Positions 42,055 to 51,899 of a DNA stretch of 64,000 nucleotides are shown here, one piece after another; within the stretch, counting starts at the first letter, position 1, and every line of letters starts with the position of its first letter. A program made the position numbers and the translations under genes. Source of the DNA: an uncultured Candidatus Saccharibacteria bacterium (GTDB lineage: Bacteria; Patescibacteriota; Saccharimonadia; Saccharimonadales; Saccharimonadaceae); NCBI GenBank assembly GCA_963528575.1, contig CAURUS010000001.1, positions 108,807 through 172,806 of the forward strand, given 5' to 3'. The notes under the pieces were generated by a model. The model had not been told where the DNA came from and did no database searches. It saw nothing but the letters and a program-made list of their open reading frames with translations.

Positions 42055-42081
42055 TTAGCACTCTTTATTCACGAGTGCCAA
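42055..42081. promoter_or_regulatory. CIRCE operator (HrcA site), proximal copy
   Basis: TTAGCACTC-N9-GAGTGCCAA (one mismatch to TTAGCACTC-N9-GAGTGCTAA). Confidence 0.85.
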
Positions 42082-42088
42082 CTATTTC

Positions 42089-42117
42089 AGTATAAATAAT
42101 TAGCACTCCCATGTCAA
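42089..42117 (-). promoter_or_regulatory. dnaK promoter TTGACA-17-TATACT
   Basis: On the minus strand, TTGACA (42117-42112) lies inside the spacer of the distal CIRCE. TATACT at 42094-42089. Confidence 0.65.
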
Positions 42118-42126
42118 GAGTGCTAA
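42100..42126. promoter_or_regulatory. CIRCE operator, distal perfect copy
   Basis: TTAGCACTC-ccatgtcaa-GAGTGCTAA. Confidence 0.9.
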
Positions 42127-45957: not shown

Positions 45958-46428
45958 TTATTGGCGCGTAACTTTGACCATCGCGTCGCGAATCACTACA
46001 CCGTCTAGCGTGTAGCCAGCACGCAGTTCCTCGGCAATCACTTCTTTGTCGCCTTCTGTTTCTTCGTCAAATTGAATAGCTTGGTGCAGTTCAGGGTTAA
46101 ACGGCGTACCGGGTTTGGCGTCAATTTTCTCGAGGCCGATTTCTTTGAGTTGCTTGTCGAGCTGTTTATTCAGGCCAGCCACGCCTTTCGCCCACGGATT
46201 ATCTTTCAGCTCCTCCGGCACATTGGCAATCGCCCGCTCAATCGTATCGATCACTGGCAGCAGTTTCATCACCGACTTCGCCTGGCCCATTTGGTGTGCC
46301 GATTGCTTTTCCGCCTCGACACGCTTGCGATAGTTCTCGAAATCCGCCCGCGTCCGCTGCAAGTCCAGCGTCAACTCGCCCAATTGCTGCTCTAAGTCTT
46401 CAGTTTTGTTAGTCTTATTCTTTGTCAT
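45958..46428 (-). CDS. grpE: Nucleotide exchange factor GrpE
   Basis: 156 aa, ...RTRADFENYRKR...LLPVIDTIERA... Confidence 0.9.
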   Translation of the reverse strand: MTKNKTNKTEDLEQQLGELTLDLQRTRADFENYRKRVEAEKQSAHQMGQAKSVMKLLPVIDTIERAIANVPEELKDNPWAKGVAGLNKQLDKQLKEIGLEKIDAKPGTPFNPELHQAIQFDEETEGDKEVIAEELRAGYTLDGVVIRDAMVKVTRQ

Positions 46429-46437
46429 TTTTTCCTC

Positions 46438-47148
46438 CTACAACATTCCCTCTAGCATAGCACCGGTTCGGCGCACCAGCTCCATCGTTCGGCGATAATT
46501 TTGCCGCGTCGGGCCAATCACGCCAATATAGCTATCATCGCTAAACGGCGAACGGAATTTACTGATAATCAGCGTAGCGCCGCTTGCTTTACCAATCGGG
46601 TTTTCGCTGCCGATAAATACATTCAGCGGCTGGTTGGGCGCGGCTTCGGCCAGCCATGGCTCGATATTATCAATTAGCCTAGCAATCGCCTGCACATGAT
46701 CGCCGCCAGCGAACTCCGGCTGAGAAAAAAGCTGCGTCATACCATTCATGTATAGCTGCGCGCCAAACGATGCGAAACCAAAGTTGCCCGTCAGTTCTAC
46801 CAAGCTATCGACGGCGCTGCGAATCGCCCGATCCGACTTATCAACATGCGAATTAACGTGCGCCTCGATCGCTCTCGCACTGCGATCGATACCACTGGGC
46901 AGTTCAGTCATCTGCGCGTCAGTAATGCCGTTAACGTAGAATCGGTAACCCTTATCAGTCGGGATGCGGCCGGCGCTAGTATGCGGCGCTTCGATAAAGC
47001 CCATCTCTTCCAGCTTAGCCATTTCGCTGCGAATCGTCGCGCTACTCACGCCAAACAATTTCGCCAGCGTCACACTGCCTACTGGCGCAGCAATTTCAGC
47101 ATACTGCTCAATGATAGCGGCGAGAATAGCCTGTTGACGTTCGGTCAT
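46438..47148 (-). CDS. hrcA: Heat-inducible repressor HrcA (short, 236 aa)
   Basis: [72 protein letters not shown]. Confidence 0.88.
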
Positions 47149-47914: not shown

Positions 47915-48382
47915 TTATAATAACTCATCCAGCACCGATTGCCAATCAGGAAATTCGGGAGTGCCAAAATGAATATGCCGGCCGACAAACTCAGCAGCGC
48001 CTTTAGTTGTCCGGTCATCAATCAAAATATCACCGCGACTCAGCTGCTTGACCGACGAAAATACGACTTTGCGAAAGAAAATATTTTCTTGGCCATCGCC
48101 GCCAAAGTGCTTCTTTACCCACGCCAGCTTATCATCCAGCGCTGTCGGATTTTCCCATGGCGACGACGACAAGATGTATAGATCGTACTTTTCTTTCAAT
48201 GCATCTACCGCCTCAAGGGCGCCTGGCATCGGATCCATTAGCGCGAAAATGCCCGGAATATTGTCGTACTCACCCGCAAACTTCTCAAGCATCTCGGGCG
48301 GAATCTTCGTCAAAGCTGATTCAAAATCAACCAGCACGCCATCCATATCGATGTAGATGATTGGTTTGCTATTTAATTTCAT
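47915..48382 (-). CDS. HAD-superfamily 5'(3')-deoxyribonucleotidase (NT5C-like)
   Basis: IIYIDMDGVLVDF (DxDGV nucleophile motif), 155 aa. Confidence 0.75.
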   Translation of the reverse strand: MKLNSKPIIYIDMDGVLVDFESALTKIPPEMLEKFAGEYDNIPGIFALMDPMPGALEAVDALKEKYDLYILSSSPWENPTALDDKLAWVKKHFGGDGQENIFFRKVVFSSVKQLSRGDILIDDRTTKGAAEFVGRHIHFGTPEFPDWQSVLDELL

Positions 48383-48426
48383 AAATTACTTCACCAATTA
48401 TAGCACTTTTGTAGTACAATAAAGAC

Positions 48427-48545
48427 GTCTACATCTAGAACATGTCCAATCGGGAGTTGATTCACACGCATAATGGGCAGCCGTTATCGGACGTGTGAAT
48501 TTACGTTCTAGGTGTAGACAGCCAATTTAACGGCTGTCCTTTTTG
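48427..48545 (+). ncRNA. Candidate structured RNA (sRNA or riboswitch-like leader), class unknown
   Basis: TACAAT at 48415-48420 places a TSS at about 48427. 15-bp P1 (48427-48441/48505-48519), 9-bp P2 (48460-48468/48492-48500), 7-bp P3 AUAAUGG-GCAG-CCGUUAU, 18-nt asymmetric loop, then a terminator. Confidence 0.55.
48517..48545 (+). terminator. Intrinsic terminator closing the structured RNA
   Basis: GACAGCC-aatttaac-GGCTGTC then CTTTTTG. Shares 3 nt with the P1 3' strand. Confidence 0.6.
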
Positions 48546-48572
48546 TTGGGCAGCATTCCTAAAGGAGGGATT

Positions 48573-49025
48573 ATGAATACAAAAGAGAAAAAGCCAATTT
48601 ACAAAAAGGTTTGGTTTTGGGTATTGGCTGTTGTCATCATAGGCGCAATTGGCGCTGGCATGAACGGCACAAAGAATCAAGCCAATGAAACGACCAAATC
48701 AACCAATAACTCGACAAGCCAACCACAACCGGAGCAAAAAACCAGTGAAAACAAAGCACGCTTGACACTGGATGACGGCTGGAAAATTGATAAAAGCAAT
48801 CAATATCTCACAAAGGTTGTCGGCACGGTTTCAAATAATTCTAACCAGGCAATTAATGGCTATATTCAAATTACTTTTTCAGGACTTGATGCTAGTGGCG
48901 CTAATGTCGGAGATTGTCTTGCTAATGCTAATACTGTTGATGCCAATGGCAAGTGGAAGTTTGAAGCAATGTGTTCTGGTCAAAATATCGAGACAGTACG
49001 GTTCAAAGAAATTACTGGGTTCTAA
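48573..49025 (+). CDS. Small membrane-anchored secreted protein, FxLYD-domain-like
   Basis: AAAGGAGGG RBS. One TM, then GTVSNNSNQAINGYIQITFSGLDASGANVG...NGKWKFEAM, resembling FxLYD domains from memory. Confidence 0.65.
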   Translation: MNTKEKKPIYKKVWFWVLAVVIIGAIGAGMNGTKNQANETTKSTNNSTSQPQPEQKTSENKARLTLDDGWKIDKSNQYLTKVVGTVSNNSNQAINGYIQITFSGLDASGANVGDCLANANTVDANGKWKFEAMCSGQNIETVRFKEITGF

Positions 49026-49055: not shown

Positions 49056-49083
49056 AAATAGTCCGACGTTTGCGGACTATTTT
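49056..49083. terminator. Bidirectional terminator
   Basis: aaatagtccg-acgtttg-cggactattt. Confidence 0.6.
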
Positions 49084-50056
49084 AATCTCTCTTTAACATC
49101 ACCATAAACGCTTCACTCGGAATGTCAACCTTGCCGAAGCGTTTCATACGCTTTTTGCCGCGAGCTTGTTTGGCGAGAAGTTTCTTTTTGCGGCTGACAT
49201 CGCCGCCGTAGAGGTAGCCGGTGACATCTTTGCGGTAAGCGCCGATGTTTTCGCGGGCGATAAATTTGCCGCCGATTGCCGCCTGTAATGCCACTTCAAA
49301 GCTCTGGCGCGGCACCACGTCTTTCAATTTCTTGACGATTTCGCGACCCAAACCTGGTGCCTCCGAACGGTGACACATCACGCTCAGCGCATCAACCATT
49401 TCGCCCGCTACATAAAAATCAACGCGCACCAAATCTTCCGGCTGATAGCCCGCCAGCTCATAATTAAACGAACCGTAGCCGCTGGTCACCGACTTCAATT
49501 GATCATAAAAATCCGTCAGCAGATTTGCCAGCGGCGCCGTAAAGGAAATCAGCGCCCGCTCGTCGATGTAGCTGAGGTTTTTCTGCCGGCCGCGCTTGGC
49601 GACAATCAGCTGAATCACCGCACCGATGTAGTCCTGCGGCACCACAATTTCACCGTCAATCCACGGCTCGCGAATTTCTTTGATCTGCGCTGGGTCAGGT
49701 AGTTCGCTGGCCGATTTGATATCCAACTCCTCGCCGTTCGTCAAACTAACTTGATAATCCGTACTCGGATTGGTGACGATGAGATCCAAATTATACTCGC
49801 GCTCCAGCCGCTCGCGAATGATATCCATGTGTAGAAGCCCCAAAAAGCCAATCCGCACACCATACCCCAACACTGGTGAATTCTCCGGCTCAAACTGCAG
49901 CGCTGAATCGCTCAGACTCAGCTTTTCAATAGCCTCTTTCAGGTCATTATAATCTTCGTTAGACACCGGAAAAAAGCCCGCGTAGACGAAGGGTTTAACT
50001 TCTTTGTAGCCGGGGAGGGGTTGGATGGTGATATGAGACATATTAGTAAAGTGCAT
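49082..50056 (-). CDS. lepA: Elongation factor 4 (LepA), C-terminal fragment (domains III, V, CTD) of a split gene
   Basis: ...ITIQPLPGYKEVKPFVYAGFFPV...GFLGLLHMDIIRERLEREY...YGGDVSRKKKLL..QARGKKRMK. Continues exactly where ORF 53912..54898 stops. Confidence 0.9.
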   Translation of the reverse strand: MHFTNMSHITIQPLPGYKEVKPFVYAGFFPVSNEDYNDLKEAIEKLSLSDSALQFEPENSPVLGYGVRIGFLGLLHMDIIRERLEREYNLDLIVTNPSTDYQVSLTNGEELDIKSASELPDPAQIKEIREPWIDGEIVVPQDYIGAVIQLIVAKRGRQKNLSYIDERALISFTAPLANLLTDFYDQLKSVTSGYGSFNYELAGYQPEDLVRVDFYVAGEMVDALSVMCHRSEAPGLGREIVKKLKDVVPRQSFEVALQAAIGGKFIARENIGAYRKDVTGYLYGGDVSRKKKLLAKQARGKKRMKRFGKVDIPSEAFMVMLKRD

Positions 50057-50111: not shown

Positions 50112-50831
50112 CTAATTGATATACCGCTCAATACGCTTAGCTCGCAGAGTTAGCACCTCAGTCAAGCCTTGCAAATATGCCGTATACTGCTCAACAGTCT
50201 GAGGTAACGGTGACGATTGAAAATCATCAAAATCTGTTAGTATTTTAACTTGGTATTTATCATCAACAAAATCTTGCAACAAGAAAAAATCGACATAGCC
50301 CTGAAAATCACCAAACCACTCAAAAAAGTCACGATAACGATCAAAAACATTAGCGAGTGGGCTGTCTTTACCTTGATACCAGCGGGCAATACATTCTAAA
50401 GTCAGGTCAAACCGATCACCAATTTTGCGGTGCCAACCTCTCGCACGATTGATGGTCTGCGTTCCGCCGCGTAGTTCGCTGGGGAAAATAATCTCTGAGC
50501 CGATGCGCCAATCAATATTATCTATTGCCGTCAAAGTATCTCGTGATGTCTGCTCAACAATCAGCTTATTGCGCTTCCAAGTTTCAAAAGTAGCTACCAT
50601 ATTATCACTTGAAACAGGAATCTGGCGCCGACCATCACTAGCCATCAAGTACGCTCCTTGATCCAACATAGTCAGCTGACGACCGTCAGGCAGTGGTTTA
50701 GTCCATAATTCAGCATGATAGCGCTTTAACGTCGGGCTGTGCTGATCTGGATCTTTATTGTTAGCGTCTTGACGACAATCAAACCAAACATCAATCATTA
50801 GTGTCGCTCCTTTCTTGGTACTAATTTGCAT
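50112..50831 (-). CDS. Hypothetical protein (239 aa), unknown family
   Basis: ORF trimmed to ATG 50831 because the 50990 start overlaps the upstream gene by 130 nt. Acidic C-terminus FFEWFGDFQGYVDFFLLQDFVDD. Confidence 0.6.
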   Translation of the reverse strand: MQISTKKGATLMIDVWFDCRQDANNKDPDQHSPTLKRYHAELWTKPLPDGRQLTMLDQGAYLMASDGRRQIPVSSDNMVATFETWKRNKLIVEQTSRDTLTAIDNIDWRIGSEIIFPSELRGGTQTINRARGWHRKIGDRFDLTLECIARWYQGKDSPLANVFDRYRDFFEWFGDFQGYVDFFLLQDFVDDKYQVKILTDFDDFQSSPLPQTVEQYTAYLQGLTEVLTLRAKRIERYIN

Positions 50832-50859
50832 ATCGCATACAATATACAAATTAAAATAC

Positions 50860-51843
50860 TCAATCCGCCGCAATAACGTCCCCAACAGACCGCCGCTTGG
50901 AATAAGCCTGCCGCTCGCCATAGCCGATGCGTAGCAAAATAGTCGGGTATTCTCCAGCCAGACCCAGCGTCCTTGCCATCTCTGAGGCAATCTCTGCTTC
51001 TTCGTTTGGCTGGTTCAGATAGGCATGAGCGATCCCAAGTTCCGTGGCAGTCAGTAAGAAACGCTGCAGCGTCCGACCCAAGTTCACCCATTCGCGCCGA
51101 CTATTTTCTCTCGTCGTAAAAAGAACCAGATGAGAAGCCGATGCTATCTTTTCGCGATCGGCCTTATTCTGCATCTTAGCATTGATAGCCATCGACATGA
51201 TTGGCTCAGCCATCCAGCGCGGCACATTAGGCGCGCCAAACACGGCGTAACTCAGCCCATCAAGTGTTTGATCTTGATGCTTCTTATTAAATCGCATCCA
51301 GCTTTTCAATTCAGCCTTAAACGCCTCTTTTTGCATTTGACGCGTATTGCCCTGAAGAACGTATTGCTCAATATCATTAAACTGTTTAGTTTGACGCGCG
51401 TAATAATGAACCGAGATACCCTTTTCACTGCGGATAGATTGTAATTTCTTTAGTACATCTAAGGCAATTTCCTCACCGTTATAAACACTGCGGTTAGTCT
51501 GCCGCGCGTCTATCTGATTGAACAATGGATTTGGCTTAATATCCGCCTTTTCCATGAGCGAAACCGTGATAACCCCCTTATCACCAACCGAAACGGCAGA
51601 TTTATAGCCCTTAGTTTGCGCCGCCAAGCAAAGATTCTCTACTGCACAGCCCAAACTCACAAACAACTCCCTGTCATCAGGATCAACTACCGGCAGCCTT
51701 CTGTCAAAATCAGGGTGAATTTCTACTGCCGACTCGTTCTGACGAAAGCGCCACGGCTGAGTATTATGACCTGATGGCGCCTTGACAGCTTGCGCAACCA
51801 AAAATTCAAAGTTAGCTGATGATATATTGTTACTGCGAGACAT
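50860..51843 (-). CDS. Nitroreductase-family (tandem-domain, Acg-like) FMN oxidoreductase
   Basis: AVKAPSGHNTQPWRF motif, about 330 aa. Alternative starts at 51852 and 51864. Confidence 0.75.
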   Translation of the reverse strand: MSRSNNISSANFEFLVAQAVKAPSGHNTQPWRFRQNESAVEIHPDFDRRLPVVDPDDRELFVSLGCAVENLCLAAQTKGYKSAVSVGDKGVITVSLMEKADIKPNPLFNQIDARQTNRSVYNGEEIALDVLKKLQSIRSEKGISVHYYARQTKQFNDIEQYVLQGNTRQMQKEAFKAELKSWMRFNKKHQDQTLDGLSYAVFGAPNVPRWMAEPIMSMAINAKMQNKADREKIASASHLVLFTTRENSRREWVNLGRTLQRFLLTATELGIAHAYLNQPNEEAEIASEMARTLGLAGEYPTILLRIGYGERQAYSKRRSVGDVIAAD

Positions 51844-51899
51844 TCTTACCATAATTCTACCCAATACGCGAGCCTTCCCATCTCGTTAGCTACTTCTTA

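Follow-up and report, generated by a model that had tools for sequence, protein, structure and literature searches.

Introduction

Among the described leader RNAs that come closest to the one reported here, the rep leaders of the plasmids pT181, pIP501 and pAMbeta1 undergo attenuation that is driven by an antisense RNA made from the opposite strand, and the guanidine-IV (mepA) riboswitch relies on a short, sequence-conserved kissing loop that is stabilised by its ligand. Few regulators can be recognised in Saccharibacteria and other Patescibacteria, which are ultrasmall epibionts, and no cis-regulatory RNA of these bacteria was found in Rfam 15 or in the literature that we searched. Here we analyse 64,000 nucleotides (nt) of an uncultured Candidatus Saccharibacteria bacterium (GenBank assembly GCA_963528575.1, contig CAURUS010000001.1, positions 108,807 to 172,806 of the forward strand); this whole stretch is called the window, and positions are counted from its first letter. 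A previous reading of the window, made without database searches (the sequence-only reading), had proposed a promoter-to-terminator structured RNA at 48415-48572, upstream of a gene for a small FxLYD-like protein, and this leader RNA is the subject of the present work.

We consider it probable, on balance, that the leader belongs to an undescribed family of Saccharibacteria 5' leader RNAs that act as transcription attenuators 5' of small envelope-protein genes. What we observe is a conserved, strand-specific structured RNA that runs from promoter to terminator and is physically linked to a dependent gene, and within which three selected helices share strands. The decisive feature, missed by the sequence-only reading, is a complementarity between the tip of the structure and its terminator. 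Full-text literature searches returned no description of the leader RNA, nor of FxLYD proteins.

Results

A structured leader precedes the FxLYD gene

The leader of the window and the gene behind it comprise the following features, where RBS stands for ribosome-binding site and ORF for open reading frame:

48415-48420, + strand: -10 box TACAAT, followed by a 6-nt spacer and the predicted start, G 48427
48427-48441, + strand: 5' strand of the outer helix P1, GUCUACAUCUAGAAC, beginning at the predicted +1 (RNAfold)
48442-48459, + strand: asymmetric internal loop of 18 nt, within the variable middle of the family and holding the GUCC (48444-48447) singled out by the sequence-only reading
48460-48468 with 48492-48500, + strand: inner helix P2, 9 bp, enclosing the apical hairpin (RNAfold)
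48470-48476 with 48481-48487, + strand: apical helix, 7 bp, capped by GCAG at 48477-48480 (RNAfold)
48475-48486, + strand: A-region GGGCAGCCGUUA, the conserved apical motif with a locus-specific flank, complementary to 48528-48539
48505-48519, + strand: 3' strand of P1, GUUCUAGGUGUAGAC (RNAfold and family alignment)
48517-48544, + strand: intrinsic terminator with a GACAGCC/GGCUGUC stem and the 8-nt loop AAUUUAAC, then C and U5 (terminator scan)
48528-48539, + strand: T-region UAACGGCUGUCC, running from the 3' half of the terminator loop through the 3' arm to the next C, partner of the A-region
48548-48554, + strand: third motif copy GGGCAGC, just past the U-run, which can pair with the terminator 3' arm (48533-48539) and leave the U-run in the loop
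48564-49025, + strand: RBS GGAGGG (48564-48569) and the FxLYD gene, with ATG at 48573 and stop at 49025 (ORF list)

All the coordinates that the sequence-only reading gave for this region match the sequence, and RNAfold returns the fold that it drew. The minimum free energy (MFE) of 48427-48545 is -50.3 kcal/mol, compared with -26.3 +/- 3.2 kcal/mol for 200 dinucleotide shuffles, none of which was as good (z = -7.4), and the hairpin alone reaches -43.5 kcal/mol (z = -8.2 against shuffles). P1 has 15 bp, including one U.G pair. At the DNA level the terminator reads GACAGCC-AATTTAAC-GGCTGTC (48517-48538), followed by C and then by T5 at 48540-48544, and it is also recovered by an independent, consensus-based terminator scan. 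The last 3 nt of P1 (GAC, 48517-48519) are at the same time the first 3 nt of the terminator stem. The MFE structure gives this shared GAC to the full P1, and only a 4-bp terminator hairpin remains, 4 nt from the U-run; such a remnant would be a poor terminator, so that the full-P1 and terminator states are nearly isoenergetic. The element is present once in the window.

The leader defines a family

Starting from homologues of the FxLYD protein, we reached loci in Saccharibacteria metagenome-assembled genomes, in which the same leader precedes the FxLYD gene; the leaders at these loci carry compensatory changes in P1 and in the terminator, and the flanking genes vary between loci. A DNA pattern composed of the P1 end and the terminator was run on IMG/VR and on metagenome contigs, and recovered four true copies from the former and at least 120 loci, most of them true copies, from the latter. 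The pooled family contains at least 113 copies, representing at least 92 unique sequences and at least 58 clusters below 90% identity. Alignment A4 and covariance model R1 were built from 57 non-redundant representatives. The model scores the window copy at 76.5 bits. Scores of about 56-99 bits are reached by the remaining full-length canonical copies, always on a single strand, and a comparison of the two strands gives 75-98 bits versus about 22 bits. The usual density is one copy per locus of 5-15 kb, with an occasional second copy (L042, L087, L032). The named relatives of the downstream proteins are all Candidatus Saccharibacteria, Saccharimonadales or Patescibacteria. The covariance model gave no match at E <= 0.01 in the Actinomycetota FxLYD loci (L006-L027), and the leader was also not found 5' of some Saccharibacteria FxLYD genes (L035-L037, L015, L017).

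Across the family, P1 consists of 13-19 uninterrupted bp in most members and is 90.7% paired in A4, with double-sided changes at nine pairs; in its recurrent U.G wobbles, the 5' strand contributes the U. The middle of the rod varies in length, in sequence and in the number of hairpins (0-2 extra) and cannot be aligned across the family, although every member has a P2-like helix, at a differing position and with a differing sequence. The tip opens with a stretch rich in A (67-84% A at positions -5 to -2), which leads into GGGCRRCC, the two together forming an AAAAU-GGGCRRCC motif. Within the apical hairpin, which is 70.5% paired as a whole, only the two outer G-C pairs and a GCRR loop (GCAA, GCAG or GCGA) are conserved. 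The final 2-5 nt of P1 double as the start of the terminator stem, behind which U5-8 follow, and this overlap is kept in divergent copies as GAU (L032), GC (L042:5550-5663) and UGGAC (L087:6782-6919). The pairs of the terminator stem outside the overlap are 99% paired in A4 and show compensatory changes. Only GUCUA, GGGC, UAGAC and the terminator contain invariant columns among the 57 representatives. Relatives of the window copy keep the structure, with helices that covary, as the sequence-only reading had asked of a genuine RNA, and both the wobbles and the model scores place the RNA on the + strand and not on the opposite strand only.

At the promoter, a hexamer matching TATAAT in at least four of six positions ends 6-7 nt before the start of GUCUA in 52 of 53 representatives, and in 45 of the 53 the match extends to at least five positions. 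Moreover, 39 of the 53 carry a TGn extended -10, which the window copy lacks, and the -35 is weak across the whole family. The start site is predicted from its spacing from the -10 box; on this basis the RNA most likely starts at the G of the invariant GUCUA.

A third copy of the motif adds to the pairing options of the terminator in part of the family. Within 16 nt past the U-run, at least six consecutive pairs with the 3' arm are possible in 21 of 58 representatives, compared with 14% of shuffles, and at least seven in 17 of 58, compared with 3% of shuffles; the third copy is a subfamily feature, found in about a third of the members, the window included. Inspection of the sequences of L056, L133 and their relatives showed, for this subfamily, complementarity between the stretch past the U-run (AUGGACNCCG) and that around the RBS (CGGAGGUCCAU). 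The Shine-Dalgarno sequence would then be held in a hairpin, suggesting an additional translational layer.

The fold was said in the sequence-only reading to match no known class, and Rfam 15 agrees. At gathering thresholds its sole matches in the window are tRNAs elsewhere; at E <= 10 the region 48350-48620 gave only two chance miRNA matches, of 14 and 11 bits, and at E <= 1 fifteen further members gave a single sub-threshold tRNA match, in L068. This last match (L068:323-413, - strand; 27.4 bits, gathering threshold 29) overlaps the leader and stems from a GGGUUCAAUCCC stretch, with the inner helix supplying, through its 3' strand, the 'T-arm'; ARAGORN found no tRNA in eight members, and a tRNA-like element was rejected. 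A T-box leader found no support either, with no Rfam T-box match and with downstream genes unrelated to aminoacyl-tRNA synthetase or amino-acid genes. A leader peptide was likewise rejected: the window has AUGs at 48442 and 48473, and neither the AUG nor the frame is conserved, AUGGGC being replaced by AUAGGGC in L030 and L031 and by AUUGGGC in L005.

Four members (L044, L047, L048 and L049) lie on IMG/VR contigs classed as viral, 5' of ORFs of 53-114 amino acids (aa) that include a QKGHS...SPNHYWH membrane-protein family; these contigs may come from Saccharibacteria phages or may be misclassified cellular contigs. The second leader copy of L032 (3600-3754, - strand) lies on the opposite strand between FxLYD and SIR2_2 genes. 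Its P1 base is degenerate, it has neither the canonical terminator nor a nearby ORF, and an unrelated strong hairpin with a U-run (AAAUAGCCGG-GGCAA-CCGGCUAUUU) follows; it is possibly decaying or repurposed.

The tip of the leader is complementary to its terminator

The A-region of the window is complementary to the T-region over 12 nt. An unbiased scan found 11-14 uninterrupted complementary nt between tip and terminator in 55 of 58 representatives, the complementarity covering the apical motif and the next 4-6 nt on one side, and the 3' part of the terminator loop and the 3' arm on the other. The first 12 of these pairs are 93-100% paired in A4, with 107 double-sided changes. The covariation score of the helix is 0.393, compared with 0.169 +/- 0.010 in shuffles (0 of 500 as high), and the helix is 91.7% paired, compared with 36-56% for slid controls. 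When given the alignment as its sole input, RNAalifold returns exactly this helix as the consensus structure. The loop part of the pairing covaries freely across loci, as in these combinations:

Tip flank GUUA with terminator loop UAAC
Tip flank AUUGC with terminator loop GCAAU
Tip flank UCGCG with terminator loop UGCGG
Tip flank CUCUC with terminator loop GAGGG
Tip flank CACUC with terminator loop GAGUG
Tip flank ACGU with terminator loop GCGU
Tip flank CCUAC with terminator loop GUAGG

The apical motif, the terminator loop with its complementarity, P1 and the promoter all lie outside what the retrieval pattern imposed. In addition, two copies beyond the reach of that pattern retain the pairing. 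L042:5550-5663 forms 12 bp and has a one-base deletion on both sides, and L087:6782-6919 forms 19 consecutive pairs that include an A-tract:U-tract, with a compensatory C-G pair where most members have U opposite U. Changes in the 3' arm of the terminator follow the apical motif no less closely than they follow the 5' arm; L039 and L091 have an A.C mismatch in the stem of the terminator and perfect pairing with the tip.

Which helices can coexist

The tip/terminator helix crosses P1. The base of P1 and the terminator compete for the GAC, and the apical motif and the 5' arm compete for the 3' arm. Both pairings of the 3' arm, with its own 5' arm and with the apical motif, covary, and the leader thus has the mutually exclusive, selected helices that are expected of an attenuator. 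Most members have only 4-6 nt of linker from the end of P1 to the pairing partner, whatever the length of P1 (Spearman rho -0.08), so that the tip of an intact rod of 20-30 bp is out of reach, and a pseudoknot with the rod intact was rejected. Another pseudoknot, put forward by the sequence-only reading between GUCC (48444-48447) and GGAC (48489-48492), did not hold for the family: it recurs in the closest relatives only, and the 5' loop there forms a small hairpin of its own.

Energies point in the same direction, those of the pseudoknotted and bimolecular states being rough. Forcing the tip/terminator helix in a nested fold costs a mean of +11.9 kcal/mol, and keeping P1 with the middle melted gives a rough mean of +5.0 kcal/mol (range -3 to +14). 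Bimolecular pairing between tip and terminator, with opening costs included, yields a mean of -8.0 kcal/mol per contact (range -16 to -2). By these estimates, pairing between transcripts would be the only thermodynamically unassisted option, and it would explain why the length of the rod varies freely.

The leader stays with genes for small envelope proteins

The window gene encodes a protein of 150 aa with an N-terminal membrane helix, and its FxLYD assignment is borne out by NCBIfam NF038353 (FxLYD_dom, E = 3.9e-17). The end of the U-run lies 28 nt from its ATG. The upstream gene (47915-48382, - strand), an NT5C-like nucleotidase, is divergent and there is no room for another promoter, so that the FxLYD gene can be transcribed only by read-through of the terminator, in line with the sequence-only reading. 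This is the arrangement of an attenuator, with a promoter just 5' and an intrinsic terminator before an ORF that has no promoter of its own.

Similarly, a same-strand RBS and ORF lie behind 82 of the 92 unique copies, nearly all within about 60 nt and most commonly 20-40 nt from the U-run; the other 10 have no close ORF. The leader stays with its downstream gene while the flanking genes differ between loci. The downstream proteins are mostly of 50-200 aa with an N-terminal membrane helix, and many have no domain. Those recognised include FxLYD (7 of 50 proteins), DUF4352, DUF5067, DUF4190, DUF805, bPH_2, SHOCT and DUF4429, and a further group consists of proteins of 51-59 aa that end in SPNHYWH. 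In this domain survey of 50 proteins, the genes shared no metabolic or transport theme.

The FxLYD protein has 143 homologues at E <= 0.001, 120 of them listed. The closest non-Saccharibacteria relatives among those listed are from Actinomycetota (Propionibacteriaceae, Leucobacter, Cutibacterium, Aestuariimicrobium), with 40-60% identity over nearly the full length, and the leader does not accompany them. Actinomycetota is the phylum that supplies the known Saccharibacteria hosts. The similarity of the proteins suggests exchange of the FxLYD gene between Saccharibacteria and Actinomycetota.

As for transcripts of the window locus, a 142-nt Logan insert (48474-48615; low depth and possibly DNA carry-over) spans the terminator. 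A metatranscriptome contig of 151 nt (run X26, 48381-48531) begins 46 nt 5' of the predicted start, just where the coding sequence of the divergent nucleotidase begins. The contig may stem from DNA carry-over, or may represent an antisense 5' untranslated region of the nucleotidase gene that overlaps the leader.

Other features of the window

Beyond the FxLYD gene, a LepA-like ORF of 324 aa (49082-50056, - strand) contains only EFG_III, EFG_C and LepA_C, with no GTPase domain, and its next upstream neighbours are a DUF6994 gene (50112-50990) and, after that, a 334-aa ORF (50860-51864). The LepA-like ORF is either a truncated lepA or the product of an assembly or annotation break. On the other side of the leader, adjacent inverted repeats at 42055-42126 (TTAGCACTC-N9-GAGTGCCAA and TTAGCACTC-N9-GAGTGCTAA) match the CIRCE operator, the binding site of HrcA, and the region 45958-47148 contains an ORF of 236 aa, HrcA-like by its sequence, together with a GrpE-like ORF.

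Discussion

The architecture of the family suggests how these leaders might work. The first 95 nt or so fold into a long rod, made of P1, the variable middle and an apical hairpin that displays AAAAU-GGGCRRCC. The default co-transcriptional fold would be this rod plus the terminator, so that most transcripts would stop at about 118 nt and those that read through would become mRNA. The 3' arm of the terminator has a choice of partners: its own 5' arm, at the cost of the GAC that P1 otherwise holds at its base; the apical motif, through a pairing of 12-14 nt that reaches into the loop and extends to as many as 19 bp where the A-tract joins the U-tract; and, in a third of the copies, the downstream copy of the motif. 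The apical motif could reach its target in either of two ways: between molecules, when the exposed tip of a completed leader binds the terminator region of a second transcript from that locus, or in cis, when a factor (a protein or a chaperone) opens the middle of the rod and permits a switch. Occupancy of the 3' arm would then set the amount of read-through or of usable mRNA, and the input would more probably be the concentration or stability of the leader RNA, or an RNA-binding protein, than a small molecule held in a pocket.

It is tempting to speculate further that the RNA is self-addressed. In this tentative proposal, for which the odds are rather against than in favour, the tip of a finished leader would bind a second transcript of that locus at its terminator loop, 3' arm and U-tail, forming a duplex of 12-19 bp in which 4-6 nt serve as a locus-specific 'address', and the leader concentration would set the balance of termination and read-through. 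The result would be an RNA-only autoregulatory attenuator, providing protein- and ligand-free control of small envelope-protein genes. Such control is plausible in ultrasmall cells, in which a single molecule already amounts to a concentration of the order of 100 nM.

Several points weigh against the attenuator interpretation and against this extension of it. The pattern by which most members were retrieved fixed the terminator and biases the set towards canonical terminators, and the conservation of UAGAC and GUCC is partly imposed by it. The transcript evidence consists of sparse, low-depth Logan contigs, some of which reach the promoter or flanks of related strains and which are possibly DNA, so that the start site, the termination efficiency and the read-through are all predictions. 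The +5.0 kcal/mol estimate for the pseudoknotted state uses an arbitrary pseudoknot penalty of 9 kcal/mol. Moreover, the pairing of the tip with the 3' arm leaves no gap before the U-run, which makes the direction of the effect ambiguous: judging by experiments with oligonucleotides supplied in trans, such pairing may promote termination and not prevent it, and a pairing that mimics the hairpin could produce negative feedback by the leader RNA instead of antitermination. Finally, we know of no established regulatory precedent for intermolecular pairing of identical leaders.

Among the other explanations, we regard protein-dependent attenuation as doubtful but worth keeping in mind. A regulator would bind the GUCUA/UAGAC base of P1 or the AAAAU-GGGCRRCC tip and, by stabilising or opening the rod, would free or hide the shared GAC and the 3' arm, in the manner of BglG/LicT, PyrR or ANTAR proteins. 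Conservation of the sequence itself, beyond pairing, at the P1 base and at the tip would suit such a protein, as would the conserved overlap of P1 and terminator, a rod that is too stable for unaided switching, and a dedicated regulon of coherent envelope genes with one to few copies of the leader per genome. However, no candidate protein emerged, and no conserved regulator gene lies nearby in the loci inspected; the invariance of GUC, GAC, GUCC and GGGC can also be explained by a chain of mutually dependent pairings, and a protein alone would leave the locus-specific complementarity of tip and terminator loop unexplained. A small-molecule or ion riboswitch, in which the long hairpin is an aptamer and the ligand decides between terminator and read-through, is unlikely, even though a promoter-proximal structure, a terminator that overlaps P1 by 3 nt, a dependent downstream gene and two alternative helices with the terminator 3' arm in common are what one would expect of it, and a ligand could bridge the gap of roughly 5 kcal/mol between the pseudoknotted alternative and the ground state. 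The nucleotides of the internal loop are unconserved in A4 and there is no invariant unpaired core, P1 is far stabler, at 13-19 bp in most members, than a ligand-gated P1, no Rfam aptamer class matches, and the downstream genes have no common metabolic or transport theme. The sequence-only reading had spoken of riboswitch or attenuator logic; with a middle that cannot be aligned and such heterogeneous genes, a metabolite riboswitch is improbable, and attenuator remains the best description.

That reading had also allowed for a stand-alone small RNA (sRNA). An abundant sRNA, possibly forming a tip-to-tail homodimer, with the downstream gene living on leak-through, would account for the strong consensus -10 and the terminator, for the selection of both the rod and the tip/terminator helix, which are compatible only between molecules, and for the copies with no close ORF, L032:3754-3600 likewise. 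We nevertheless consider it quite improbable, since a same-strand RBS and ORF follow most copies at a distance that leaves no promoter room, the leader travels with its downstream gene across genomic contexts, and the parts outside the helices diverge rapidly, unlike typical trans-acting seed regions; an sRNA as the sole role of the element is hence unlikely. As for a palindrome that acts at the DNA level, such as a REP- or MITE-like repeat or an operator, it would fit the long, near-perfect inverted repeat with its conserved termini GTCTA...TAGAC. Against it, the element occurs once in 64 kb, and about once per locus elsewhere; compensatory changes preserve its helices, as do U.G wobbles, which on the other strand would be A.C mismatches, covariance-model scores are one-stranded, and promoter, U-run and RBS are always oriented the same way. 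Wobbles with the U on the 5' strand fit only an RNA of the + strand and exclude a DNA palindrome, and the repeat or operator was rejected as effectively refuted by these strand-specific pairs. The interpretation offered by the sequence-only reading is thus, as a whole, partly supported.

If the attenuator interpretation is right, the family would give Saccharibacteria dedicated post-initiation control of small membrane and surface proteins, the kind of protein that is expected at the interface with the host. Its architecture is unusual, with the alternative partner of the terminator held away on a rigid rod, and makes the family a test case for long-range or intermolecular control of termination. 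Moreover, the strong covariation eases experiments with compensatory mutations, and the element could serve as a native part for expression control in the genetic tools that are currently being developed for Saccharibacteria and other Patescibacteria.

Classical attenuators and the expression platforms of riboswitches resemble these leaders in being promoter-proximal, in having a terminator just before the RBS, and in forming covarying alternative helices on one strand of that terminator. In contrast to them, the alternative partner here pairs with the terminator at its loop, 3' arm and U-tract and not at its 5' arm, it sits at the tip of a rod of 20-30 bp, out of reach in cis, and the leader has no leader peptide, tRNA-binding elements or ligand pocket. 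The systems of BglG/LicT with its RAT, of the PyrR loop and of ANTAR proteins likewise have a hairpin that overlaps the 5' arm of the terminator by a few nt and serve a small regulon, whereas our leader has no RAT consensus, no ARUCCAGAGAGGYU and no paired hexaloops with A1/G4, and no cognate protein gene was seen near it in the loci inspected.

The guanidine-IV riboswitch resembles the leader in that the decision to terminate centres on an interaction of the terminator loop with a loop in a hairpin upstream. Here, however, the duplex is longer (12-19 bp), is locus-specific and uses up the 3' arm and U-tract, and no conserved nucleotides form a ligand site. The plasmid rep leaders are alike in that RNA-RNA pairing through a hairpin loop decides the fate of the terminator and the concentration of a small terminated RNA matters. 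They differ in the origin of the pairing partners: in the Saccharibacteria leader, loop and target are on the same sense transcript, and action in trans would take place between identical molecules.

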